Source: an uncultured Alphaproteobacteria bacterium
GTDB lineage: Bacteria > Pseudomonadota > Alphaproteobacteria > RF32 > CAG-239
Length of the DNA stretch: 64,000 nt
Assembly (NCBI GenBank): GCA_944393665.1
Contig: CALYAX010000001.1
Span: forward strand, 6,018-70,017
Direction of reading: 5' to 3'
Part shown: piece after piece, positions 733 through 25,773 of the stretch
How positions within the stretch are numbered: position 1 is the first letter of the stretch
Layout of the letters: each line of letters opens with the position of its first letter
Notes under the pieces: model-generated
The model's input: only the letters and a program-made list of their open reading frames with translations
Databases searched by the model: none
What the model was told of the DNA's origin: nothing
Made by a program: the position numbers and the translations under genes

Positions 733-2511
733 ATGGAAAAATCCGCGTTTCGTTTTGTCTGGCACTATATTAAGATTTTTAGATGGATGTTAATCCTGAT
801 GATCGGCCTGTTAGTTGCCGGTCAGACCGGGCGCCAGTTTTCCCCTTATTATCTTTCCCGTCTTTATGACGCGGTTTCCACTTATAAAAATACGCCGCAG
901 CTTTGGCATGAAATCATATTTTATATTTCAATGGCTTTTGCCATGCTTTTGTGCGGGCAGGTTATTTCCGGCGTCAGTTTTTTTATGATGTCAAAAATTG
1001 TGCCGCAGCTGCGCACCTTGGTCATCCGCGATGTCTTTGACTATGTCAACCGCCACTCCATAGCCTTTTTCAGCGAGGAAATGGCCGGCAATATTTCCAA
1101 CAAGGTCCAACAGCTTCAGAACGGCGTCTGCGATTTGACGGAGCGCAGCCTGGATGCCAGCTGGGGACTGCTTTACACGATTGTCGGACTGGTTATTTTA
1201 AGTTCGGTCAGTTTATGGCTGACCCCGGTGTTTGCCTTGTGGACATTCATCGTGGTCAGTCTGGGTTTTTATCTGGGAAAGAAAATCAACACCCTCTCAA
1301 AAGCCACCGGCGATGAACAGAGCCGCGCCAACGGCATGATTGTTGACTCAATTGCCAATTACAGCGAAATTAAAAGTTTTGCAAATTTCCGGTTTGAGCG
1401 TCTTAATCTGCTTAAGGCATTGCGGCTGCTGCGCAAAACCGAAAATAAGGAATTGTTCGGACAGGCTGTTATATACCTGATACAGCATATGACGGTTATT
1501 TTGTCTTTGTTTGCTTTTATGTTTTACAGCATCTGGCTGTTCAAACAAGAGCTGCTGAGCGCCGTGGACTTTATCTTTGTCAACACCTTGTTCGCCACGA
1601 TGGGGGGAACAATTTTCAATATCACCTGGTCATACAACGGGCTGCTGCGAATTTTCGGGAAAATCGAATCTGCTTTGAATACTCTGGCTGTTGAGCCGGA
1701 AATTGTCGACACGCCCGGCGCTAAAAAGCTGCATGTCAGAAAAGCGGCCATCCGTTTTGAAAATGTCAGTTTTGCCTATAAAGCCCGGCAGCGCATTTTT
1801 GATAAACTCAACCTGGAAATTAAACCGGGAGAAAAAATAGGCCTGGTGGGAACTTCTGGCGCCGGAAAATCTACGTTTATCAAGCTGCTGTCGCGGTATT
1901 TTGACGTTACTGCTGGCGGAATTCTGATTAACGGCAAAGACATTCGCAGTTTTACCCAAGATTCCCTGCACAAAAATATTGCGGTTATTCCTCAAGACGT
2001 CTGCCTGTTTAACCGTTCTTTGTATGATAATATCCGCTACGGCAGAACCTCTGCCAGCCGTGAAGAAATCATACGGGCTGCCAAAAAGGCCTCGGCTGAC
2101 AAGTTTATCAGCAAATTTCCCCAGGGATATGACACAAAAGTCGGCGAACGCGGCGTGGTTTTATCCGGAGGCGAGCGGCAGAGAATCGCCATTGCCAGGG
2201 CAATTTTGAAAAATGCGCCGATTTTAATTTTTGATGAAGCTACCTCGGCTTTGGACAGTGAAAGCGAGCGCCATATTCAGAAATCCCTGTCGCATTTGAT
2301 GAAAGGAAAAACAGTTATCGCCATTGCCCACCGCCTTTCAACCCTGCGCGAAATGGATCGTATTATTGTTTTGGAAAAGGGAAAAATTGTTGAAGAAGGC
2401 ACTCATAATTCCCTGCTGCGCAAAAAAGGCGTTTATGCCAAATTGTATAAAATGCAGGCCGATGGTTTTGTCGGCACCGAAAGCCCGCGCGAGACGACAA
2501 CAACCTTATAA
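733..2511 (+). CDS. ABC exporter with fused permease and ATPase domains (MsbA/ABCB-like)
   Basis: N-terminal multi-TM region, then Walker A GTSGAGKST, ABC signature LSGGERQRIAIARA and Walker B ILIFDEATSALD. Confidence 0.85.
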   Translation: MEKSAFRFVWHYIKIFRWMLILMIGLLVAGQTGRQFSPYYLSRLYDAVSTYKNTPQLWHEIIFYISMAFAMLLCGQVISGVSFFMMSKIVPQLRTLVIRDVFDYVNRHSIAFFSEEMAGNISNKVQQLQNGVCDLTERSLDASWGLLYTIVGLVILSSVSLWLTPVFALWTFIVVSLGFYLGKKINTLSKATGDEQSRANGMIVDSIANYSEIKSFANFRFERLNLLKALRLLRKTENKELFGQAVIYLIQHMTVILSLFAFMFYSIWLFKQELLSAVDFIFVNTLFATMGGTIFNITWSYNGLLRIFGKIESALNTLAVEPEIVDTPGAKKLHVRKAAIRFENVSFAYKARQRIFDKLNLEIKPGEKIGLVGTSGAGKSTFIKLLSRYFDVTAGGILINGKDIRSFTQDSLHKNIAVIPQDVCLFNRSLYDNIRYGRTSASREEIIRAAKKASADKFISKFPQGYDTKVGERGVVLSGGERQRIAIARAILKNAPILIFDEATSALDSESERHIQKSLSHLMKGKTVIAIAHRLSTLREMDRIIVLEKGKIVEEGTHNSLLRKKGVYAKLYKMQADGFVGTESPRETTTTL

Positions 2512-2634
2512 AAACTTCCAACTGGAAATGCCCCTTTTGCCAAAAGGTTATCCCGGCAGCCAAAGATTGACTCTTGCTAAATTGCCGCGAGAGATTATAT
2601 TAAAAAGGCTGAATATGATTTAGGAGGGTCGGAG

Positions 2635-3246
2635 ATGAAAAAATGGCTGTTAGCCGCGGCACTGATGTTGACAAGCGGCACCGCACAGGCGCAGAGTGCC
2701 GAGAATATCCGCAAAATTGAAACTTATCTCAACAACATTAAAAGCCTTCAGGCCGATTTTGTGCAGATGTCGAGCAACGGCGGAACGGCCGAGGGGCGCC
2801 TGTTTATCGAAAAGCCTAATAAAATCCGCATGGAATATGCCGAACCCACCAATGTTCTGATTGTGGGCGACGGCAATTATATCGTTTACAATGACACCGA
2901 TCTCGGCCAGGTAACCCATATTGATTATGACGATATTCCGGCAACCCTGATCCTGGCAAACGATATCAAAATCGACGGCAAAAAAATCAAGGTCAGCGAT
3001 TTTTACCAGGATTCCGGTTCGACCCAGATTACGCTGGATTATGCCAATAAAGGCGATATCGGGCCGATTACGCTGGTTTTTTCCAATAGTCCGATGGAGC
3101 TGAAGCAATGGAAAATTGTCGACCCGCAAAGTGTTGAGGTAACCGTTTCAATCTATGACGCTAAAAAAGATGCGGAATTGGATAACAGTTTATTCAAATT
3201 CAAAGACAAAAAATCCAGCCCGCTGAACTATAAAAAGAAAAGATAA
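2635..3246 (+). CDS. LolA-like periplasmic outer-membrane lipoprotein carrier family protein
   Basis: Signal peptide MKKWLLAAALMLTSGTAQA. Length of about 200 aa and a beta-rich profile with Q..F.Q and DG..Y spacing typical of the LolA family. Confidence 0.55.
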   Translation: MKKWLLAAALMLTSGTAQAQSAENIRKIETYLNNIKSLQADFVQMSSNGGTAEGRLFIEKPNKIRMEYAEPTNVLIVGDGNYIVYNDTDLGQVTHIDYDDIPATLILANDIKIDGKKIKVSDFYQDSGSTQITLDYANKGDIGPITLVFSNSPMELKQWKIVDPQSVEVTVSIYDAKKDAELDNSLFKFKDKKSSPLNYKKKR

Positions 3247-3248
3247 AG

Positions 3249-4055
3249 ATGTCCTCATTTAAACTGGCAACCTGGAATGTCAACTCAATCCGCATCCGGC
3301 TGGAGCTTTTAGCGCAGCTGTGCCGGTCGGAAAATCCCGATGTTATCTGTCTGCAGGAGGTTAAGGCCAGGCAGGAAGATTTTCCCTTTGAGGAAATCAG
3401 AGCCCTGGGCTTTGCGCATATTGCCTTGTACAGCCAGCCGGGTTACAACGGCGTGGCCATTCTTTCCAAAACACCGTTCAAGTCAAGCTTGCAGCGCGAT
3501 TGGGTCGGTAAGCACGATGCCCGGCATATTGCCGCAACCCTGTATGATGATATTGAAATCAATAATGTTTATATCCCAGCGGGAGGAGATATCCCTGATC
3601 CGATCGTGAACCTTTCCTTCGCTCATAAATTATGTTTTATGGACGATATGTCAGAATGGTTTGAACAGCACCGCAGCGTTTTGGAAAACCGTAAAATGAT
3701 TATCTGCGGCGATTTTAACGTGGCGCCGCTGGAGTGCGATGTCTGGGATCATAAAAAAATGCTTAAAGTGGTGTCGCATACCCCGGTTGAGATCGAACGG
3801 CTGACACGGCTGTACCAGTCCCTGAACTGGGTTGACGCGGTTCGCCGTCATTTGCCGGCGCCGGAAAAGGTCTTTTCGTGGTGGAGTTACCGCAACCCCA
3901 ACTGGCAGACGAACAACAAGGGGCGGCGGCTGGATCATATCTGGGTTACCCCGGCTTTGCAGGAACGGGTTGCCGGGGCATATATTGCCAAAGAAATGCG
4001 CTCAATGGAACGGCCTTCAGATCATGTTCCGGTGATTGCCGAAATCAGGCTTTAA
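3249..4055 (+). CDS. xthA: exodeoxyribonuclease III (AP endonuclease, EEP fold)
   Basis: MSSFKLATWNVNSIRIRL... N-terminus, a GDFN motif and a C-terminal SDHVPV motif, all typical of Xth. Confidence 0.85.
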   Translation: MSSFKLATWNVNSIRIRLELLAQLCRSENPDVICLQEVKARQEDFPFEEIRALGFAHIALYSQPGYNGVAILSKTPFKSSLQRDWVGKHDARHIAATLYDDIEINNVYIPAGGDIPDPIVNLSFAHKLCFMDDMSEWFEQHRSVLENRKMIICGDFNVAPLECDVWDHKKMLKVVSHTPVEIERLTRLYQSLNWVDAVRRHLPAPEKVFSWWSYRNPNWQTNNKGRRLDHIWVTPALQERVAGAYIAKEMRSMERPSDHVPVIAEIRL

Positions 4056-4671
4056 GCTGATATCCCCCCTCCAAGGTCAGAATCAGCTGGGCGGACGGAT
4101 CATCCTGCTCAACCTTTTGACGCAGGCGGTAGACATGAGTTTCAATCGTATGGGTTGTCACATCGGGAGCATATCCCCACACTTCCTGCAGGAGTTCGGT
4201 TTTGGTGACGATACGGTCCTGGGCTTTGTAAAGATATTTCAAAATCGCAACTTCTTTTTCCGTCAGCTTAACCACCTCGCCGTTGCGGCGGTTGAGAATC
4301 TCCTTTTTGACAGGACGGACTTCATAGCGGTTAAAATTAAGATAACCCCCGGCACTGTTTTCAAACAAATTAATACTCGAGCGCAGTTCGTTGAAAAGTT
4401 TTTCCAGGCGCAGCGGTTTGGCAATGATATGGGTAAAAGCGCTGTTCTGCGGTGCATTATCGGGGTCAGAAGTCAGTAGAAACAACGGCGCTTTCAAATA
4501 ATGGCGGTGCAGTTCTTCAAGCTTGGCGGCATCTTCATCAATAATGACAATATCCGGAACCGCAGGGTCGCCGGGATTAAGCAGATTAAAATCTTTGATA
4601 TGATGGCTGAGCTGGCCGGCCAAGTCCTCGCTGAAATAGCCCGAACCGGCTACAAATAAAATATTTGACAT
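4045..4671 (-). CDS. OmpR-family winged-helix transcriptional regulator with an atypical receiver domain
   Basis: The C-terminus (LTEKEVAILKYL...THTIETHVYRLRQK) is an OmpR-type wHTH. The receiver keeps the central Asp (DIVIIDED), the T/S and the KP motif but lacks the acidic pair in beta-1 (ILFVAGSGY). Confidence 0.6.
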   Translation of the reverse strand: MSNILFVAGSGYFSEDLAGQLSHHIKDFNLLNPGDPAVPDIVIIDEDAAKLEELHRHYLKAPLFLLTSDPDNAPQNSAFTHIIAKPLRLEKLFNELRSSINLFENSAGGYLNFNRYEVRPVKKEILNRRNGEVVKLTEKEVAILKYLYKAQDRIVTKTELLQEVWGYAPDVTTHTIETHVYRLRQKVEQDDPSAQLILTLEGGYQLKA

Positions 4672-4683
4672 CGTTAACGTCCT

Positions 4684-5805
4684 TTAGAAATTAAGTCCTA
4701 TTCCGGCCATAAAAGCATAGCCCTGATTGTTGTCGGCGGGAGCCTTGTCTGCCCCTTCAAAATCAACATGGGCGGCGGCAAGATAAACTTCGGCATACTG
4801 GTTAAACTGATACTGGTTGGAAAAAACAGTAATTTTATCTTTGTTGGAGGTGCGTTCCGCTTTGGATTCAAAATATGACAATGCCGTTTTAAAGGGTCCG
4901 ATTTCATACCCGACGCCGATATCCCAGGCCTGCCCCTCACGATAATTGTCAAACAGCAAAGGCATTTGTTCTGAAACTTCAATCCGGCGCTGTTTGTCCC
5001 GTCCGTCGATATACGTTTTGCGCCAGCCGCCCCCGATACTGACATTGCCGCGGCTCAGACGCAGACTGGCAGACATTTCTTTGTCGTTATCATGAAATTC
5101 AGCATAACCCAGCGAACCGTTCAGCTTAAACTTGCCAAATTCCTGCGCGCTGTAAAGGGCTGCCACAAACCCGCCGTCATGAGAATAAGAAGCCCTTTTG
5201 TTGACAAGGCCGCGGCGGTTATAGGCATCGGGCACATAGGTTAAACCCAGCATGGTATTGTAAAAGGACGGAGAAATATAACTGACTTTCGGAGCGACAC
5301 CATCGGTATTGATATAGGTCGTATTTAATGTGGCAAAACGGGTGCCGCGGCTGTTGCGCTGCCAGTTGGGGTTGCGGATAAAATCAACGACCTCGCTGTT
5401 ATTGATGCCGATCGCGCCGGCTTCCGGAGCTCCCTCATGAAACTGGGCGTCAACGTTGAATGTCTGCCCGAGCATTAAACGGCCGTAGGGACTGTCGGCA
5501 ATAACGTAAGCCTCCTCACCCCAGGCGCCCTGGTTGTAGTCTTTGAGCTCCTGGTCAATACCGCCCATAACATCAAAATTGATACTGGCGGAATAGTCAT
5601 CATCAAAACTGTAAGCCGCACTGAAACTGACATCGCCCTGCCCGACAATATGATTGTTTTTATCATTGGATTTGAACCGGCGGGGACGATGACTGTATCC
5701 GTATATTCCCTGGGCATGGCCGCTGACATCGATATCCCACCCGCCGGCGGCAGCCAGCGAAGGAAAAAGCGCGATTAAAGCGAAGAGGAAATATTTTATT
5801 TTCAT
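4684..5805 (-). CDS. outer-membrane beta-barrel porin (alphaproteobacterial Omp2/RopA-like)
   Basis: Signal peptide, alternating beta-strand pattern, Gly/Tyr-rich, and a C-terminal aromatic residue (...GIGLNF). Confidence 0.65.
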   Translation of the reverse strand: MKIKYFLFALIALFPSLAAAGGWDIDVSGHAQGIYGYSHRPRRFKSNDKNNHIVGQGDVSFSAAYSFDDDYSASINFDVMGGIDQELKDYNQGAWGEEAYVIADSPYGRLMLGQTFNVDAQFHEGAPEAGAIGINNSEVVDFIRNPNWQRNSRGTRFATLNTTYINTDGVAPKVSYISPSFYNTMLGLTYVPDAYNRRGLVNKRASYSHDGGFVAALYSAQEFGKFKLNGSLGYAEFHDNDKEMSASLRLSRGNVSIGGGWRKTYIDGRDKQRRIEVSEQMPLLFDNYREGQAWDIGVGYEIGPFKTALSYFESKAERTSNKDKITVFSNQYQFNQYAEVYLAAAHVDFEGADKAPADNNQGYAFMAGIGLNF

Positions 5806-5933
5806 CGGTTCAGCCTTTGTTATACCGGTTCAGTTTAACGATTGACAACGCAGAGTCAATATAAATTGTGTTTGCAATTTTGCAAGTTTCCAGCGATAAT
5901 TCAGACAGACAAAATTAAAAAGAAAGGCAGGTC

Positions 5934-6467
5934 ATGACATTTCAATATCAGCACGGTCTGGTGGTCATGCGGGCGCAGCCGCTACATTCGGGGCATGAGC
6001 GGGTTATCCGCCAAATGCTGAAACAATGCGGCAAGGCAACGGTTATTCTCGGTTCTATTCAGGAACAGGGGACACCCCGCAATCCCTTTACTTATGCCCA
6101 GCGCAAAGAAATGATTTTAAATGTTTTTTCCGCTGAGGCGTCGCGTCTGAAAGTGATGGGCCTGTTTGACATCAACAATCCGGTGCAGTGGGCGGATTTC
6201 GTTCTTGATTTCATGCAGGAAAGCATGCCGGACCGGGGTGTGCCGGACGTTTATTATGCCGGCAGTGCTTATGATGCCCAATGGTTTGCCCCCTGTTTTG
6301 AGCATATTGAAACGGTTGACCGTACCGACCCGGCTTTTCCGTATGTCTCGGGAAGCATGGTGCGAGACATGATAACGATCGGCGATAACCGCTGGCGCCA
6401 GTTTATCAGTCCCTGCAATCATCATTTTATTGAAGAATTTATGCTGCCGAAAAAAGGAGAATTCTGA
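5934..6467 (+). CDS. nicotinamide/nicotinate mononucleotide adenylyltransferase, NadM (archaeal-type) family
   Basis: The HxGH motif (LHSGHERV) about 15 aa from the N-terminus, a length of 177 aa and ...NPFTYAQRKEMI all match NadM-type cytidylyltransferase-fold NMNATs. Translationally coupled to nadE (ATGA overlap). Confidence 0.6.
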   Translation: MTFQYQHGLVVMRAQPLHSGHERVIRQMLKQCGKATVILGSIQEQGTPRNPFTYAQRKEMILNVFSAEASRLKVMGLFDINNPVQWADFVLDFMQESMPDRGVPDVYYAGSAYDAQWFAPCFEHIETVDRTDPAFPYVSGSMVRDMITIGDNRWRQFISPCNHHFIEEFMLPKKGEF

Positions 6468-7252
6468 TGAATTACCAACAGATATGGGACAAATTAGCTC
6501 ATGGCCTGAAAAAATACTGCACGGACAACCATTTTGAAAAGGTCACGCTGGGGCTTTCCGGCGGTTTAGATTCCGCGGTCACGGCGGTTTTGGCGGCGGA
6601 CGTGCTGGGCGGCGCCAATGTACAGGCGGTTATGATGAAAACCAAAAATACTTCCTCTTTGAGCTTGCAAATTGCCCGGGAGATTGCCCGGCTGAATCAC
6701 CTGGATTTTACGGAAACCGATATTCAGCCGCTGGTCGATGCCGAAGACGCATTTTTAAGCACTATAACCGGCGGCAGACTTAAAAATATCGTGCTTGAAA
6801 ATATTCAGGCACGGCAACGCGGTCTGCTGCTGATGGCTTTGTCGAATCAGAATAATTCCCTGGTTCTGGCCTGCAGCAACAAATCAGAAACCGCAATGGG
6901 GTATTGCACCTTGTACGGAGATACCTGCGGCGGCCTGGCGCCAATCGGCAATCTTTATAAAAGTGCTGTGTTTGAGCTTGCAAAATGGCGCAACACCCGG
7001 GGACTGGCTCTGCCGACAGAAGTGATTGTGCGGGCCCCCTCGGCCGAACTCAGTGCCGGACAGAAAGACGAGGACAGCCTGCCGCCGTATAAAGTTCTTG
7101 ACCGGATTTTGGAAGCCTATCTCGATCAGCGGGAAAGTGCGGCGGCAATTGTTGCCGAAGGCTTTGACGCCGTTACCGTCGAGGGGGTTATCCGCCGCTT
7201 TCATGCCCAGGAATTCAAACGCCGCCAGCTGCCGCCCTCCCTGCCGCTTTAA
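6467..7252 (+). CDS. nadE: NH3-dependent NAD+ synthetase-family amidoligase (single domain)
   Basis: PP-loop motif GLSGGLDSAV. A 261-aa single-domain NadE. Confidence 0.8.
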   Translation: MNYQQIWDKLAHGLKKYCTDNHFEKVTLGLSGGLDSAVTAVLAADVLGGANVQAVMMKTKNTSSLSLQIAREIARLNHLDFTETDIQPLVDAEDAFLSTITGGRLKNIVLENIQARQRGLLLMALSNQNNSLVLACSNKSETAMGYCTLYGDTCGGLAPIGNLYKSAVFELAKWRNTRGLALPTEVIVRAPSAELSAGQKDEDSLPPYKVLDRILEAYLDQRESAAAIVAEGFDAVTVEGVIRRFHAQEFKRRQLPPSLPL

Positions 7253-7376
7253 AAGCTGAAAAAGTTGTGGATTTTTCAGGCTCAAAGCGGGGAAAACTAA
7301 TAGATTTTGCTTGGTTAAAACTTCTTTCCGATGTATGTTGGAAAGTAATGAAAATTTATGTCGTAACAGAGGATAA

Positions 7377-9827
<2,451 letters not shown>

Positions 9828-9833
9828 GTTTGA

Positions 9834-9858
9834 CCCCCGCGGTGCGGGGGTTTTTTTT
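9834..9858. terminator. bidirectional intrinsic terminator between gyrB and flagellin paralog 1
   Basis: Hairpin cccccgc-ggtg-cggggg followed by T8. The opposite strand also has an A/T run. Confidence 0.7.
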
Positions 9859-9943
9859 GCCTTATTATCAGCCGGAAAGTTTTCAAAGCCGTTTGGACAA
9901 TTACATGCGGCTGATTTAAACAGTTTAAATTCTGTTGGCAGGC

Positions 9944-11593
9944 TTAAAAGAGTTTCAAAACGGACTGGCTGGCCTGGGAGGCAAGCGAGAGGGAATTAAC
10001 CGCCAGCTGCTGGCGCGTCTGCAAGGCCAGCATGTTGGCACTTTCCTGGTTCATATCCGCCAGGGTTAACTGGTCCGCGCCCTCGGTGAGGACATTAATC
10101 AACGAATTGGTAAAGTTCTCCCGGGTGGTGACAATCTGGTAGTAGTTGCCGAACTCTGAGGCATAGAGCCGCAGCTGGTTAATGGCGCTGTCGATTTGGT
10201 CAAGCGACTCTTGCACCCCGGCGGCGCTGCTCCAGTCGGCGGTTTCCAGCCCCATGCCGGAAGTCGTAGCGTCGACGCCTTTGATATCCAAATCCGAGGT
10301 ACGGGATTCATTAAATACCACTTTCAGGTCCTGACTTTTGAGCAGGTTAACGCCTTTGTACCAAGAGTCATTAATCAGATTATCATACTGGGTCAGGATT
10401 TGGTTAAACTGGCTGGCTGAAGAGGCGCTCTCTTCTTTTGGAACCTGTTCCAGCGGTTTGGTCATTTCAACGACAATATCCGGAAATGCAGGAGCTGCCG
10501 TTGTCTGCAAAACAAACTCCGGCGGCAAAGTATTTTCACCAGGGGCTTCTACAGAATTTATCGCTGCACTGCTGGTGTATAACTTACCGTTAATAGCAAA
10601 ATTTGCTCCTTTTACGGCAGAAATTTTAGTTGCGGCAAATGCTTTATCGTCCTTGACATTAACCAAAGACGTTGTGTCCCGGATGTCAATCTCACTCATA
10701 ACAAAAGAATCGTGAAGGCTTGATGAATTTAATACTGAATTGTAGAGAACCAGAGAAGTATCCGTAAACCCAAAATCATTGGTTAATCCGTTTAATGTTG
10801 CGTTATGGAGCTCAAATTTTCCCGCAGTTGTCCGATCCATGTTGGAAATTCCGCGTAAATTAACAGTTCCTTTAACCGTGACTGTTCCCAATGCCACCAG
10901 AGCTCTTGCCCCGGCAACTTCAGCAGAGGCTGATGTATCAATTGTAATATTTGTATTTTGGATAACACTCTGATTTCCAAGATTAACAGCCCCGCTATAT
11001 CCTATTCTGCGGTCGGATTTGAAAGTTATGTTTAAATCGGATATGAGAGTGTTTTCTCCGGCTGACAGTCCTGAAAGAGCTGTTCCTTGAAAATCAAAAA
11101 CCAATTCTGTCTGCGCAGCGTTTTTATCGAGGTAACGGGCGCCGACCAGGGACTGCCCGTCACCCAGGACAATGTTCTGATTAGCGGACATGGTGATGTC
11201 CGAGGTCAGCACAATTAAACCCTTTTTGCCGCTGTCGATGGCCGCGAGGAGTTCTGCCTCCGTCGATACTTTCGCAACTACCGGCTGCGCCGTTTCCAGC
11301 GCGCTGTTAGCGACCGATTTGGCCTGTTCCAGAAATTTGGTTCCGGCCTCGATACTCTCATTGACGGCTTTTAAGGTTTGTATCCCCTGGCTCATCGCGT
11401 CCAGCAGAACGTTCAAATCCTCGGCGCGGTTGCTCAAAGACTGGGCAGTGTAATAAGAAGACGGATTATCAATCGCGGAATTGACTTTCAACCCGGTGGC
11501 GAGGCGGTTCTGGGTCAGATCCTGCAGCTTAGCCGTCTGCTGCAATGACAGCAGATTGTTCCGCATGGATGATGTCAAGCTGATTCCGCTCAA
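9944..11593 (-). CDS. flagellin-family protein, paralog 1 (549 aa) with a large central beta-helix-like insertion
   Basis: N-terminus (SLTSSMRNNLLSLQQT...GLKVNSAIDNP) and C-terminus (...LAVNSLSLASQASQSVLKLF) match flagellin D0/D1 helices. The start is TTG with an in-frame TAA 7 codons upstream. The central part of about 350 aa is Asn/Ser/Thr/Gly-rich and repeat-like. Confidence 0.8.
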   Translation of the reverse strand: MSGISLTSSMRNNLLSLQQTAKLQDLTQNRLATGLKVNSAIDNPSSYYTAQSLSNRAEDLNVLLDAMSQGIQTLKAVNESIEAGTKFLEQAKSVANSALETAQPVVAKVSTEAELLAAIDSGKKGLIVLTSDITMSANQNIVLGDGQSLVGARYLDKNAAQTELVFDFQGTALSGLSAGENTLISDLNITFKSDRRIGYSGAVNLGNQSVIQNTNITIDTSASAEVAGARALVALGTVTVKGTVNLRGISNMDRTTAGKFELHNATLNGLTNDFGFTDTSLVLYNSVLNSSSLHDSFVMSEIDIRDTTSLVNVKDDKAFAATKISAVKGANFAINGKLYTSSAAINSVEAPGENTLPPEFVLQTTAAPAFPDIVVEMTKPLEQVPKEESASSASQFNQILTQYDNLINDSWYKGVNLLKSQDLKVVFNESRTSDLDIKGVDATTSGMGLETADWSSAAGVQESLDQIDSAINQLRLYASEFGNYYQIVTTRENFTNSLINVLTEGADQLTLADMNQESANMLALQTRQQLAVNSLSLASQASQSVLKLF

Positions 11594-11690
11594 AATTTTG
11601 TCCCCGCCCGGTTCGTAAATTAATTTACTTTACTCATTAAAGTAATAAGCTTTTTGAACTTTTAAATAAAGAAATAACCTTATATATTCC
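11594..11690 (-). promoter_or_regulatory. conserved 5' leader/promoter region of flagellin paralog 1 (near-identical to 23185-23278)
   Basis: About 90 nt upstream of the TTG start matches the region upstream of paralog 2 (ttaaaagttcaaaaag..ttattactttaat..aaccgggcggggacaaaattttg). Confidence 0.5.
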
Positions 11691-11697
11691 ACAAAAA

Positions 11698-22608: not shown

Positions 22609-23175
22609 ATGAATGCCCCAGATAAATTTGCCCGCGAAAAACGCCTCGTCATGGAAGCGGCCCGCAAGGGAATCAGTTCCAATATCCCTTTGAAAGGTAT
22701 TCAAAAGAAATACCTTAAAAATCTTTTATATTTTGCAATGATGAATGCTGCCGGCAATGAAACGGTAACCCAGCGCAATTTTATCAAGCTGGTTAACCGG
22801 CTGTTTAAAAAATTTTTGGTTAAACTGGTGGTTCACAATTCAGATACCGATGATGATGATGCCGAGGAAGGCCTGAATGTGGAACTGAATAATATCCTGG
22901 CCAATGAACAGCGGCTCGACCTGCAGGAGTTGCAAGCTTTGATGACCCCGGAAAAAATCGTAACCTTAATTAAAAATCATACCCAGGGCGTATCACAGCG
23001 GCAAATTTTAAACCGTTTGCTGGCTTTGCGCGATCTTAAAACCAACCACCGCGAAACACCCGAAGAGCAAAAAGAACGAGAAAGAAGAGAAAAAGAATAT
23101 GAGCTCCAGCGGAAGATAGAGCGTGCCATGGTTATGGAAATGGTTAATACCCGCAGCGACCGCTCCCGACATTAA
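22609..23175 (+). CDS. hypothetical protein (188 aa), helical with a charged C-terminus, immediately upstream of flagellin paralog 2
   Basis: ORF only. It has an acidic DTDDDDAEE patch and a KERERREKEYELQRK coiled-coil-like tail. I recognised no family. Confidence 0.45.
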   Translation: MNAPDKFAREKRLVMEAARKGISSNIPLKGIQKKYLKNLLYFAMMNAAGNETVTQRNFIKLVNRLFKKFLVKLVVHNSDTDDDDAEEGLNVELNNILANEQRLDLQELQALMTPEKIVTLIKNHTQGVSQRQILNRLLALRDLKTNHRETPEEQKERERREKEYELQRKIERAMVMEMVNTRSDRSRH

Positions 23176-23184
23176 TTTTGTGGA

Positions 23185-23278
23185 AGATAAGCGGTTAGCA
23201 CTTTATTTAAAAGTTCAAAAAGTTTATTACTTTAATCAGTAGAGAAAATTTATTTGCTAACCGGGCGGGGACAAAATT
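23185..23278 (+). promoter_or_regulatory. conserved 5' leader/promoter region of flagellin paralog 2 (near-identical to 11594-11690 on the opposite strand)
   Basis: Sequence shared with the upstream region of paralog 1, including ggcggggacaaaattTTG. Confidence 0.5.
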
Positions 23279-25138
23279 TTGAGCGGAATCAGCCTGACAT
23301 CATCCATGCGGAATAATCTGCTGTCATTGCAGCAGACGGCCAAGCTGCAGGACCTGACCCAGAACCGCCTCGCCACCGGGCTGAAAGTCAATTCCGCAAT
23401 TGATAATCCGTCTTCCTATTACACTGCCCAGTCTTTGAACAACCGTGCCGAAGATTTAAATGTTCTGCTGGACGCCATGAGCCAGGGGATACAAACCCTG
23501 AAAGCGACAATCCAAACTATTGAAGCGGCAACCGGTTATCTGGAACAAGCCAGTTCATTTACCCGCCAAACAATGGACGGACAATCAACCGTTACCGCAT
23601 CAAAGGAATGGTTTGAACGCCAGGCCGGCGTTGGAGCGGTGGTTTCCACCAAAGAAGAGCTTTTAGCCGCCCTTGATTCGGCCAGCGGAAAAATTGTTGT
23701 ATATGGCTCAATTGATATGGGTGATACGGCGATCACTCTTAATGACGGACAAAGTCTGGTCGGTGTCGGCAGTTTTGCGGCTATCAGCGACCGTGCCAAA
23801 GATTCCCAACTGGATAAATTTTCCAGCCTTAACTGGAACGTCAATATTTCCCAGCCTACTGTTGTCATGGGAAATGACACTTCCATCAGCGATCTCTCCC
23901 TGAAAATATCAACAACCATCGGCGGGTATAACACTTTTGTCGGAGCCTGGAACAAACAGGGCCTGGAATTTAAAAATATTGATCTGGTTGTTGACGGTGG
24001 TCCCTCCAGTCAAAATTTTTATGGCATTAATATTGTTAATTCAACTGCCGAATTTAAGGGTATTAACAACATAAGGGCAACGGGAGCCTCTAATAATGTA
24101 GCCGCATTCTCGAACTCAGCTTCCGTCATCAATATCGGCGGCAATACAATTCTGAATGTTGAAAACGAAAAAGGTATCGGCATTCGGGGAAACGGCAATA
24201 TATTTAATTTTTATGACAACGCTCAAATTAATGTCCGGGCTCGTTTGGGGGTTGTGCAATCAGATGTTTTGAATTTGAAAGATAGCGCTTCTCTGAATAT
24301 CGAATCGAACGATGTCGGTTTTCTGTACGGACATTTAAATATTTTATCGGCCAATGCCCAATTAAAAATATTTGCGGGAAGAGCATTTTGCAGTAATTCC
24401 AACGATGTCAGCAGTCTGGTCTTTAATGTGGTGGAAGGGGCGGTTATAAAAACCCAGGAAGGAGTCTATACAGCGCCGGCTGGCGGCGTAAGTGCCACTG
24501 TTCCGATTATGTATATTTCTGACATCAGCCAATTTGGTTTTATCCGCGACGCTTCGCAAAACTCAGGAGACGACCCGGTTTTTACAGAAATTTTCAACAA
24601 GTTTATGCAAGATGACAGTGAAAGCTTTCAACTGCCTAAGGATGCCAAAACCTGGGACAATAAAAATACGGTTGATCAGTTTAATCTAATTCTCAGCCAG
24701 TATGACCAACTTGTTAATGACGGCTGGTACAAAGGTGTTAATTTGTTGAAAAAACAGGATCTTAAAGTTGTATTTAATGAAGAGCGAACTTCAGATCTTG
24801 ATATTAAGGGCGTCAATGCCACGGTTTCCGGACTGGGCATAAACAAAACAACCATTGACACAGAATTGGCTGTCACTCTTGAAGAAATCGACAGTGCGAT
24901 TAACCAGCTGCGGCTCTATGCCTCGGAGTTTGGCAACTATTACCAGATTGTCACCACCCGGGAAAATTTTACCAACTCTCTGATTAATGTCCTCACCGAG
25001 GGCGCGGACCAGTTAACCCTGGCGGATATGAACCAGGAAAGTGCCAATATGCTGGCTTTGCAAACCCGCCAGCAGCTGGCGGTTAATTCCCTCTCGCTTG
25101 CCTCCCAGGCCAGCCAGTCCGTTTTAAAATTGTTTTAA
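23279..25138 (+). CDS. flagellin-family protein, paralog 2 (619 aa) with a large central beta-helix-like insertion
   Basis: The first ~75 aa and last ~76 aa are identical or near-identical to paralog 1 (flagellin D0/D1 helices). The central ~400 aa is divergent but shares motifs (ST[KE]EELLAA[IL]DS, DGQSLVG, SDL[NS][IL]). TTG start. Confidence 0.8.
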   Translation: MSGISLTSSMRNNLLSLQQTAKLQDLTQNRLATGLKVNSAIDNPSSYYTAQSLNNRAEDLNVLLDAMSQGIQTLKATIQTIEAATGYLEQASSFTRQTMDGQSTVTASKEWFERQAGVGAVVSTKEELLAALDSASGKIVVYGSIDMGDTAITLNDGQSLVGVGSFAAISDRAKDSQLDKFSSLNWNVNISQPTVVMGNDTSISDLSLKISTTIGGYNTFVGAWNKQGLEFKNIDLVVDGGPSSQNFYGINIVNSTAEFKGINNIRATGASNNVAAFSNSASVINIGGNTILNVENEKGIGIRGNGNIFNFYDNAQINVRARLGVVQSDVLNLKDSASLNIESNDVGFLYGHLNILSANAQLKIFAGRAFCSNSNDVSSLVFNVVEGAVIKTQEGVYTAPAGGVSATVPIMYISDISQFGFIRDASQNSGDDPVFTEIFNKFMQDDSESFQLPKDAKTWDNKNTVDQFNLILSQYDQLVNDGWYKGVNLLKKQDLKVVFNEERTSDLDIKGVNATVSGLGINKTTIDTELAVTLEEIDSAINQLRLYASEFGNYYQIVTTRENFTNSLINVLTEGADQLTLADMNQESANMLALQTRQQLAVNSLSLASQASQSVLKLF

Positions 25139-25234
25139 GCCTGCCAGTTCTCAAGGTTTTTTAGACAAAAAGTCTTGACTCTGTCATCTTTGAACTTTAC
25201 ACTGATGCCGAAAAATCAATTAAAAACAAATTAT

Positions 25235-25723
25235 ATGACAACAAAGTTAGATAAGTACACCAATGATTACCGGTTGGCGGAACTTAAAAAAGAGAAACAT
25301 CTCCTTTTCGGTAATGACGGATTTTTTTATGAAACCCGTGAAGTAAACGGTGTCAAGGAAGCCAGAAAACGGCAGCCGGCCGCTCAGATGAAGAAATTCC
25401 GCCGCTATCAATTCGGTGCTTTTCACATTATTATTGAATGCCGCCGGGACAAACACCGGATTATTTTAGTCGTTAAAGATGTTCCTGAGACTGAATCGGT
25501 ATTCTATTTTTGTATGAATGACTACCGGTTTATCAGAATTATTAAGTATCAGACAATTCACAAAGAAGAGTTTGAAACTTATGTCCGCGGGACCGGGGAA
25601 CAAAATTACAGTTTCAAACGGAACGAAATGTTTTACACCGCCGCCGGCAACCAGTATCTCTGCCCGGAGCAGGAATATTCCTGGGAACCTCTAAGAGAGG
25701 CATTAGAAGCGGTTGAAGCGTAA
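25235..25723 (+). CDS. hypothetical protein (AT-rich orphan ORF downstream of flagellin paralog 2)
   Basis: The ORF track extends to 25175 (TTG), but that overlaps a sigma70-like promoter (TTGACT, 17-nt spacer, TACACT, at 25175-25203). ATG codons at 25205 and 25235 are alternative starts. I recognised no family. Confidence 0.4.
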   Translation: MTTKLDKYTNDYRLAELKKEKHLLFGNDGFFYETREVNGVKEARKRQPAAQMKKFRRYQFGAFHIIIECRRDKHRIILVVKDVPETESVFYFCMNDYRFIRIIKYQTIHKEEFETYVRGTGEQNYSFKRNEMFYTAAGNQYLCPEQEYSWEPLREALEAVEA

Positions 25724-25755
25724 AAAAAGAGCACTATTAAAATAGTGCTCTTTTT
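25722..25755. terminator. bidirectional intrinsic terminator shared by the 25.2-kb orphan ORF and tsf
   Basis: A7, then the hairpin gagcactat-taaa-atagtgctc, then T5. Confidence 0.7.
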
Positions 25756-25773
25756 CAGATTCAAGGCAGTAAA

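Follow-up and report, generated by a model that had tools for sequence, protein, structure and literature searches.

Dispersed flagellin genes with conserved ends, a shared leader and predicted beta-helix centres in an uncultured alphaproteobacterium

How do two flagellin genes of one genome keep almost the same ends when their middles have become so different? This question is raised by a stretch of 64,000 nucleotides (nt) from an uncultured Alphaproteobacteria bacterium (GTDB lineage Bacteria; Pseudomonadota; Alphaproteobacteria; RF32; CAG-239), taken from contig CALYAX010000001.1 of NCBI GenBank assembly GCA_944393665.1 (positions 6,018 to 70,017 of the forward strand) and called the window below. 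It contains two flagellin genes separated by 11.7 kb. Flagellin paralog 2 (p2; 23279–25138, plus strand) encodes 619 amino acids (aa) and lies downstream of a NUDIX (RppH-like) gene and upstream of tsf, which is convergent, and paralog 1 (p1; 9944–11593, minus strand) encodes 549 aa and lies between gyrB and polA. Conserved ends and a variable middle form the classical flagellin pattern. For this locus, we consider it probable that p2 is one of several dispersed units made of a leader and a flagellin gene, with termini evolving in concert and centres folded as beta-helices, and that, of the two small genes beside p2, ORF188 is unrelated to the unit and ORF162 is linked to it by position.

An earlier note on this DNA, made from the letters alone, had described p2 as a second flagellin of 619 aa with a TTG start, shared by p1, placed together with two neighbouring open reading frames (ORFs) between rppH and tsf. 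The length, the start codons, both flanks and both neighbours were borne out by the ORF calls, and the paralog is real, although p1 had to be reassigned to the minus strand. Both proteins pass the gathering scores of Flagellin_N (PF00669; 29.7 bits for p2 and 31.0 for p1, gathering score 26.6) and Flagellin_C (PF00700; 35.2 and 35.4 bits, gathering score 23), the latter with the full profile covered (1–86/86), and their overall identity is 47% (BLASTP). The NCBIfam models PRK12688 (191.9 bits against a cut-off of 614; E 1e-56) and PRK14708 (178.1 bits against 1384; E 1e-52) align only with the termini of p2, which stays far under both cut-offs because its central domain is unrelated. The nearest solved relatives by sequence are the Caulobacter filament flagellins FljK/M/N/L (E ~1e-11). 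Both p1 and p2 thus read as intact flagellins, and indirect support for their putative polymerisation into a filament after type-III export comes from the homology to FljK/M/N/L and the extreme constraint on the D0/D1 region.

The two conserved blocks of p2 are codons 1–76 (23279–23506, plus strand; helical D0/D1 region) and the last 83 codons (24887–25135, plus strand; helical D1/D0 region). Between p1 and p2, the first 76 aa differ only by S54N, with 14 further codon differences that are synonymous, and the last 83 aa do not differ at all, with 16 codon differences, all synonymous. In total, 30 of the 31 differing codons in the two ends are synonymous. The ratio of nonsynonymous to synonymous divergence (omega; Nei-Gojobori method, NG86) is 0.017 in the N-terminal block and 0.030 in the C-terminal block, where the synonymous divergence (dS) is 0.336 and 0.34, respectively. 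In the core (residues 166–460), the nonsynonymous divergence (dN) is 1.29 and dS is saturated; dS is also saturated at residues 77–117 and 461–535, though the proteins still align there. The transition is abrupt: at codons 74–77, identity at third positions goes down from about 10/12 to about 4/12, with a sharp edge at codon 77. Since constraint at the protein level cannot produce such a step, the sudden rise of dS, which is 0.34 in the blocks and saturated just outside them, indicates recombination edges, and since the terminal dS is about 0.3 rather than 0, conversion of the termini was not very recent.

These numbers refine what the earlier note had claimed. Its view that the terminal differences are almost all synonymous and point to purifying selection is well founded (30 of 31 codons; omega ~0.02), and the non-uniform divergence in the segment-wise dN/dS comparison upholds its reading of conserved ends around a swapped centre. 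It had, however, set purifying selection against very recent gene conversion, and only half of this stands: the conversion is not very recent (dS ~0.3, not 0), but the termini have recombined. The shared N-terminus of about 75 aa can be fixed at 76 aa with a single change, and the 100% identical C-terminus is 83 aa, not 76 aa, in length. Of the motifs listed for both centres, DGQSLVG and ISDL[NS][IL] are indeed common to the two, and the remaining one should read ST[KE][EA]ELLAA[IL]DS. The GC content at third codon positions (GC3) also differs along the genes, being 0.67–0.77 in the termini and 0.36–0.44 in the centres of both copies, with about 0.47–0.58 in neighbouring genes; codon optimisation or GC-biased conversion could account for this contrast.

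Further evidence for recombination of the ends comes from seven paralogs of two genomes, compared over 76 + 83 terminal codons. Genome A, which is the same as or conspecific with that of the window, carries p1, p2, P0032 and P0037 on one 397-kb contig (GCA_964316525.1), and genome B provides P0004, P0040 and P0030 (GCA_964316465.1 and ENA scaffold_654). The terminal dS is 0.27–0.34 within A and 0.26–0.49 within B, versus 0.81–1.21 between A and B, and clustering of the termini by the unweighted pair group method with arithmetic mean (UPGMA) gives two clean clusters, one for each genome. Residue 12 is diagnostic of the genome, with asparagine in all A copies (n = 4) and serine in all B copies (n = 3). 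Terminal omega is 0.00–0.09 among within-genome pairs. The centres follow another order: that of p2 is 75% identical to the centre of P0004 in genome B and 33–38% identical to those of all other copies, and the terminal dS of the p2/P0004 pair is 0.81 despite this 75% identity. Both p1-type and p2-type centres occur in genome B, the p2-type at a different locus. As the termini group by genome and the centres group across genomes, the sequences demonstrate concerted evolution of the termini through recombination in the ends.

A possible trace of one such event lies directly behind p2. The 8 nt past its stop codon (GCCTGCCA; 25139–25146, plus strand) are common to p1, and a conversion tract may end here. 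The 3' footprint TAAGCCTGCCA is common to p2 and p1, but L012, the corresponding locus of a sister lineage, lacks it. When window positions 25136–25162 are compared with positions 27–50 of L012, 24 extra nt (TAAGCCTGCCAGTTCTCAAGGTTT) are found between the last codon of p2 and the promoter region of ORF162, and the first 11 of them match the 3' end of p1.

Upstream, the similarity extends over a leader. The p2 leader (23174–23278, plus strand) contains the boxes TTGTGGAA, CTTTATTTAAAAGTTCAAAAAG.TTATTACTTTAA and CCGGGCGGGGACAAAATT, and the p1 leader (11594–11698, minus strand) abuts the stop codon of polA. The earlier note had seen this shared leader and put its length at about 90 nt; it is in fact 105 nt, with 90 of 105 positions identical between p1 and p2, and in both copies it begins at the preceding gene's stop codon. 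A Shine-Dalgarno-like GGGGA within the CCGGGCGGGGACAAAATT box stands 7 nt ahead of the TTG start. All seven genes of genomes A and B have this leader in front of them, P0032, P0037, P0004, P0040 and P0030 included. A five-sequence alignment has 53 invariant columns. The invariant blocks of the leader are TTGTGGAA, CTTTATTTAAAA, TTATTA..TTAA and CC.GGCG.GGACAAAAT, with the TTG start coming after the last of them. In the sequence upstream of TTGTGGAA the copies are unrelated, and in two of them this position is occupied by the terminator of the preceding gene. A search of the window with the leader pattern found only two copies, versus 0 expected by chance. The distance between the p1 and p2 leaders (0.143) is about half the adjoining synonymous proportion (0.27), so some constraint is likely. 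We infer that the leader combines a promoter/operator with an unstructured, AU-rich 5' untranslated region (5'UTR) in which GGGGA would be the ribosome-binding site. A structured RNA element was considered and rejected (RNAalifold -4.4 kcal/mol, no real covariation, no Rfam family). For phase variation of the Salmonella hin type, neither inverted repeats around the leader nor a recombinase among the neighbouring genes were found. In more distant metagenome-assembled genomes (MAGs), the leader is homogeneous within each MAG and different between MAGs, and the combination of leader and gene appears to be the evolving unit throughout the clade.

The hypervariable central domain of p2 (residues ~118–445; 23630–24613, plus strand) was modelled with AlphaFold2 (AF2) on a 63-sequence alignment of full-length homologs. 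The model of the centre is all-beta, with the predicted local distance difference test (pLDDT) mostly about 90 or more in windows of 10 residues, and the termini form long helices of low confidence, as expected of a monomer. Among the Foldseek matches listed for the centre (PDB, BFVD) there are essentially only right-handed beta-helix proteins, namely polygalacturonase, alginate epimerase, pectate lyase, phage tailspikes and the serine-rich repeat protein (SRRP) adhesin of Lactobacillus reuteri, whose binding region (PDB 5nxk) is matched with a probability of 0.99; the remaining flagellin matches cover the helical termini. Four other paralogs give matches to PF20585 (Pectate_lyase_5) of 17.1 (p1), 21.0 (P0032), 22.6 (P0037) and 19.4 bits (P0040), all below the threshold of 24.3, with E-values of 1e-4 to 7e-3. 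The centre is thus predicted to be a right-handed parallel beta-helix resembling the folds of adhesins and tailspikes.

A catalytic role of this domain is not indicated. The invariant core positions listed from the 63-sequence alignment are hydrophobic or glycine, the exceptions being E127 and Q158, both in the N-terminal cap region, and no conserved catalytic signature was seen in the centre of these homologs. The HExxH motif is absent from p1 and p2, which have no peptidase Pfam match either. The modelled centre would therefore be a beta-solenoid without catalytic function, displayed on the outside of the filament in an adhesive, structural or antigenic role. Positive selection acting on the centre was discarded as unsupported (core omega of p2 versus P0004 ~0.1, with dS saturated), and it is probably old, divergent cassettes, not selection of this kind still at work, that account for the diversity of the centres. 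No description of a beta-helix outer domain in flagellins was found in the literature searched.

How far does this family extend? Genome A has at least four flagellin paralogs that share the leader, each standing singly between unrelated housekeeping genes, and the neighbours of the other A and B paralogs include genes of a Lon-like protease and an ABC permease, FGase and a racemase, a radical-SAM protein and a HAD hydrolase, IleRS, and an aldolase and ferritin. A homology search returned more than 3,000 relatives. Among the best 120 of them, about 90 align over the full length at about 40–50% identity, and about a dozen match at about 60–83% identity on the termini only, which means that they carry different centres. 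A scan of species-representative genomes showed the family to be greatly expanded in MAGs that bear the title "uncultured Alphaproteobacteria bacterium" and that were screened for flagellin ORFs with hidden Markov models (HMMs) built from the alignment. For example, bin E01__bin302 (CALXTG01 contigs; loci L019–L089) contains 22 complete genes and, where contigs end, 11 fragments of the N-terminal and 14 of the C-terminal part. The complete genes are all distinct, with a best central identity within the bin of no more than 54%, so that the bin has at least 33 different genes, of which 22 are complete and at least 11 are fragmentary. Some of these copies lie on one contig, spaced by core genes (dnaN-recF, queA, mnmG, atpF, tsaB). 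Metagenome contigs often break inside these genes, repeatedly within the conserved termini (L012–L016, L001 and L002), so the copy counts in MAGs are lower bounds. In practice, copy numbers of such genes are underestimated in MAGs.

Several further observations concern this family. In genome B, four shorter flagellins (360–397 aa) with ATG starts and a different leader are clustered with an FlbT gene (L003, 16251–21863), indicating that the lineage has two flagellin classes. In bin E01, tandem hairpins resembling repetitive extragenic palindromes or miniature inverted-repeat transposable elements (REP/MITE-like; e.g. CTCGGGTCAAGCCCGAGTATGACA) stand before the shared leader at loci L023, L025, L028, L031, L036, L037, L041, L068 and L074–L076; such units lie about 140 nt upstream of many E01 flagellin starts, and nothing comparable was seen in the window. 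They might mark how the E01 flagellin genes spread. Other kinds of centre also exist: an E07 copy (L047, 270–1832) has a different centre with a match to Lcl_C (PF07603; E 2.6e-6), and a UMGS1426 copy of about 880 aa (L049, 1579–4221) has a different centre as well. The sample names ONAT22, BEDA17, MCDO18 and LIUQ22, met with among the contigs L012–L016, L001 and L002, look like codes of gut-metagenome studies, which would point to a gut habitat.

The two small genes beside p2 have separate histories. ORF188 (22609–23175, plus strand), next to rppH, has 57 homologs at 40–99% identity, all about 185–200 aa long and without a Pfam family. In three contigs (L009–L011; GCA_965314855.1 and two others), the NUDIX gene is followed by an ORF188 homolog and then by convergent tsf, rpsB and parE, with pbp, gpmI, an M23 peptidase gene, ctpA and a deacetylase gene ahead of the NUDIX gene, and neither a flagellin gene nor ORF162 stands at the rppH-tsf site. 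Homologs at 47–48% identity (L006–L008) are still in the same cluster, with changed downstream genes. The omega of ORF188 versus its L009 homolog is 0.13. Judged by the synteny of its homologs, ORF188 is an ancestral neighbour of rppH and not a part of the flagellin unit. In its own right, it represents a clade-specific family of about 185 aa, consistently linked to the cluster of pbp, gpmI, M23, ctpA, deacetylase and NUDIX genes (window and L005–L011). In another relative (L005; GCA_047017225.1, 1.08-Mb contig, positions 1100–13500), the genes for the penicillin-binding protein (PBP), M23 peptidase, ctpA, tsf and rpsB are broken into many short frames, which look like assembly frameshift errors, not real pseudogenes.

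Relative to these relatives, the extra segment of the window (~23176–25773) consists of the flagellin unit and ORF162. The earlier note had regarded p2 and two AT-rich orphan ORFs as a block inserted as a whole between rppH and tsf, a reading that is wrong as regards ORF188 and lacks support as regards ORF162. Only the flagellin and ORF162 are extra, as ORF188 is found beside rppH without a flagellin. The GC content is lower than in the flanks, but only mildly (0.441 for ORF188, 0.453 for p2 and 0.425 for ORF162, versus 0.475 for the window and 0.474 for tsf), and "orphan" suits ORF162, which has only four homolog clusters and no remote homolog, and not ORF188 with its 57 homologs. Neither ORF was found beside another flagellin gene among about 70 other loci fetched. 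With ORF188 next to rppH where no flagellin is present, and both ORFs missing from the other flagellin loci, the idea of an accessory module fails by the criterion that the earlier note had set for it. Insertion of a mobile element was also rejected, there being no flanking direct or inverted repeats and no integrase. A plasmid search with the inserted segment and a phage search with ORF162 gave no match, and neither ORF188 nor ORF162 has a match in PHROGs, PADLOC, Pfam or NCBIfam.

ORF162 (25235–25723, plus strand) starts at ATG 25235 according to the gene callers. The earlier note had described an ORF of about 165–182 aa with its own promoter and terminator. A candidate sigma-70-like promoter (TTGACT-17-TACACT; 25175–25203, plus strand) was found by the consensus scan, and a perfect 15-bp inverted repeat with A- and T-runs (25724–25755), which would serve as a bidirectional terminator, lies between ORF162 and the convergent tsf. 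The length needs revision: TTG 25175 belongs to the -35 hexamer of the promoter-like site and the gene callers choose ATG 25235, so ORF162 is best read as 162 aa. Both hexamers are kept in L012, whose ORF162 is 81% identical. The four homolog clusters have 80–100% identity, and phmmer against 1.84 billion representatives gave only close relatives. In all contigs that carry ORF162 the order is flagellin 3' end, ORF162, tsf. The gene evolves much faster than its neighbours (81% aa identity versus 98–99.6% for tsf, rpsB and parE) with an omega of 0.12–0.14, and it is a genuine lineage-restricted gene kept by purifying selection. An AF2 model built on a four-sequence alignment was unusable (mean pLDDT 39.9). 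Elsewhere in the window, a 66-aa ORF (~14526–14726, minus strand) between polA and the PBP gene has a weak ParD/RHH match, and no toxin partner for it was evident in the ORF list of the window.

How, then, could this arrangement have arisen? Positions 23174–25146 of the window would represent a self-contained unit of leader and flagellin gene, one of at least four scattered singly among housekeeping genes, composed of the ~105-nt leader, a helical N-terminal D0/D1 region, a hypervariable beta-helix of 300–400 aa and a helical C-terminal D1/D0 region. Flagellin termini are required for type-III export, chaperone binding and filament packing. Purifying selection would keep them almost invariant, and recombination among the copies of one genome would homogenise them further. 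The beta-helix cassettes would be old, mutually very divergent lineages that have been retained and moved between loci and genomes, and each would stand out from the surface of the filament in a structural, adhesive or antigenic, not an enzymatic, role. ORF162 would be a small lineage-specific gene with its own promoter.

Some points weigh against this explanation. The leader does not cluster by genome, that of p2 being equally near to those of P0040 in B and p1 in A, so its history is, as far as the alignment tells, mosaic rather than one of simple homogenisation. The consensus scan reported no clean sigma-70 site in the leader, and a check by eye revealed no clean match to sigma-54 (GG-N10-GC) or sigma-28 (TAAA-N15-GCCGATAA); a paper on an extracytoplasmic function (ECF) sigma factor and flagellin in Azospirillum offered no usable consensus for its promoter. 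The centre of p2 itself has no Pfam match, PF20585 included. The terminal dS may be partly lowered by selection on codon usage (GC3 is high, and dS of rpsB is also low), although this does not explain the clustering of termini by genome. Moreover, the organism is known from metagenomes only.

Several other explanations were compared with that of dispersed, concertedly evolving units. Selection alone might have kept the ends alike in copies that diverged once and never recombined, the flagellin and both ORFs having been inserted as one module. The terminal omega of about 0.02, with 30 of 31 differing codons synonymous, and the somewhat lower GC content of the three genes are in line with this. 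However, selection on the protein does not protect synonymous sites, yet dS, at 0.34 in the blocks, becomes saturated right at their edges, and the termini cluster by genome rather than by gene lineage; as to the module, ORF188 adjoins rppH, with tsf next, in relatives without the flagellin, and neither ORF stands beside any other flagellin locus fetched. We regard this explanation as extremely improbable. Import of cassettes is a more serious candidate, which we would call possible, if rather unlikely as the main cause: other strains or species would be the donors of centres or whole genes, taken up by homologous recombination whose end points fall in the termini, as in the H-antigen switching of enterobacteria, in place of repeated conversion within the genome. 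The p2-type centre at a different locus in genome B, the presence of the p1-type centre there too and leader types that cross genome boundaries agree with import, and serotype switching by recombination with end points in conserved regions is documented (Hu and Reeves, PMC7018530). But all four A copies and all three B copies share genome-specific termini, including the diagnostic residue, and such termini at several dispersed loci need homogenisation rather than one import; the 3' flank of p2 also equals that of p1 just past the stop codon. The two processes are not mutually exclusive, and the leader types crossing genome boundaries suggest that both conversion within genomes and import of cassettes occur.

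The function of the proteins and of ORF162 leaves room for other proposals. The long copies might not be subunits of the propeller filament at all, but flagellin-derived proteins that the flagellar type-III system exports to act as adhesins, as a sheath or decoys, or as minor components or parts of the tip, with the shorter flagellins building the filament. This would fit the adhesin-like centre (the sub-threshold PF20585 matches and the structural match to the SRRP adhesin), the very high copy numbers, the location of the genes outside flagellar clusters and the classical cluster of 360–397 aa flagellins with FlbT in genome B. We nevertheless find it quite doubtful, as their D0/D1 termini are complete, evolve under extreme constraint and resemble both the filament-forming Caulobacter flagellins and the long PRK12688/PRK14708 models; long flagellins of the PRK12688/PRK14708 type form the thick flagellum of Bradyrhizobium. 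For ORF162, a role as dedicated partner of the p2 copy (e.g. chaperone, regulator or modifier) might be read from its position directly 3' of the flagellin end in every contig that carries it and from its purifying selection (omega 0.12–0.14). It has, however, its own promoter-like site and no translational coupling to p2, resembles neither FliS, FlaF or FlbT nor any family of Pfam, NCBIfam, PHROG or PADLOC, and is missing from all other flagellin loci fetched. In L005, where there is no flagellin, its place is taken by a weakly similar ORF of 129 aa (pairwise E 0.02). A partner role is therefore very unlikely in our judgement, and the link between ORF162 and the flagellin is positional only.

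A bolder extension of dispersed beta-helix flagellins is that they form a programmed repertoire for surface diversity in gut-associated uncultured Alphaproteobacteria (at least four copies here and at least 33 in a related MAG). The leader and termini would then act as recombination handles and as a common expression signal, so that the filament could carry adhesin-like cassettes that are shuffled, assembled together or expressed in turn. We think this unlikely at present, but if it were true, it would imply varied binding of glycans or mucus and varied recognition by antibodies and phages, and would make these genes the flagellar counterpart of the multigene families for antigenic variation.

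In its core the pattern is ordinary, since conserved ends and concerted evolution of flagellins have been documented already. What goes beyond the textbook is the large outer domain predicted to be a beta-helix of the adhesin or tailspike type, the scattering of single genes among core housekeeping genes, each with the same leader, and the growth of the family to dozens of distinct copies in related MAGs. If these domains are displayed on filaments, the flagellum of this uncultured lineage would be a variable adhesive or antigenic surface. Several relatives are gut metagenome bins. Such display would bear on the recognition of flagellin by the host, on phage receptors and on the way in which multigene families preserve functional ends as their middles diversify.

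Compared with known proteins, the centre of p2 has the same predicted fold as the adhesive domains of PF20585 and 5nxk. The known members of PF20585 are adhesins that are secreted or anchored to the cell wall; here the domain sits inside a flagellin. In flagellinolysin (PMC5595980) and the giant flagellins (PMC6248924), a folded domain likewise replaces the hypervariable region, and would likewise be displayed thousands of times along the filament. Unlike the metallopeptidase of flagellinolysin, p1 and p2 lack HExxH, and their outer domain is predicted to be a right-handed beta-helix. The PRK12688/PRK14708 proteins and the Caulobacter FljK type (PDB 6xl0, 8uxj) have the same start (MSGI.L..S.R.NLLSLQ) and the same end (LALQTRQQLA...LF), though the Caulobacter flagellins are without any outer domain, unlike p2.

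Among flagellin families, concerted evolution of paralogs is known from flaA/flaB of Campylobacter. It has likewise been reported for fla in Alteromonadales (PMC6053082), and the H antigens of E. coli and Salmonella display "dual-level diversity", with conserved ends and a hypervariable centre (Hu and Reeves 2020, PMC7018530). As in the H antigens, the N- and C-terminal regions here are under purifying selection, the centres are extremely divergent without intermediates, and the end points of recombination lie inside the conserved regions. In contrast to the H antigens, which are alleles at one locus, at least four paralogs reside together in a genome here (at least 33 in the related MAG), and the variants are scattered among housekeeping genes, each with its own copy of the shared leader. 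With Alteromonadales and Campylobacter, the family shares the feature that paralogs of one genome resemble each other more than orthologs of different genomes do. It differs from them in that homogenisation is limited to about 76 + 83 codons, with longer stretches in the p1/P0032/P0037 subgroup, the centres remain 33–56% identical, and the copies are dispersed, not tandem.

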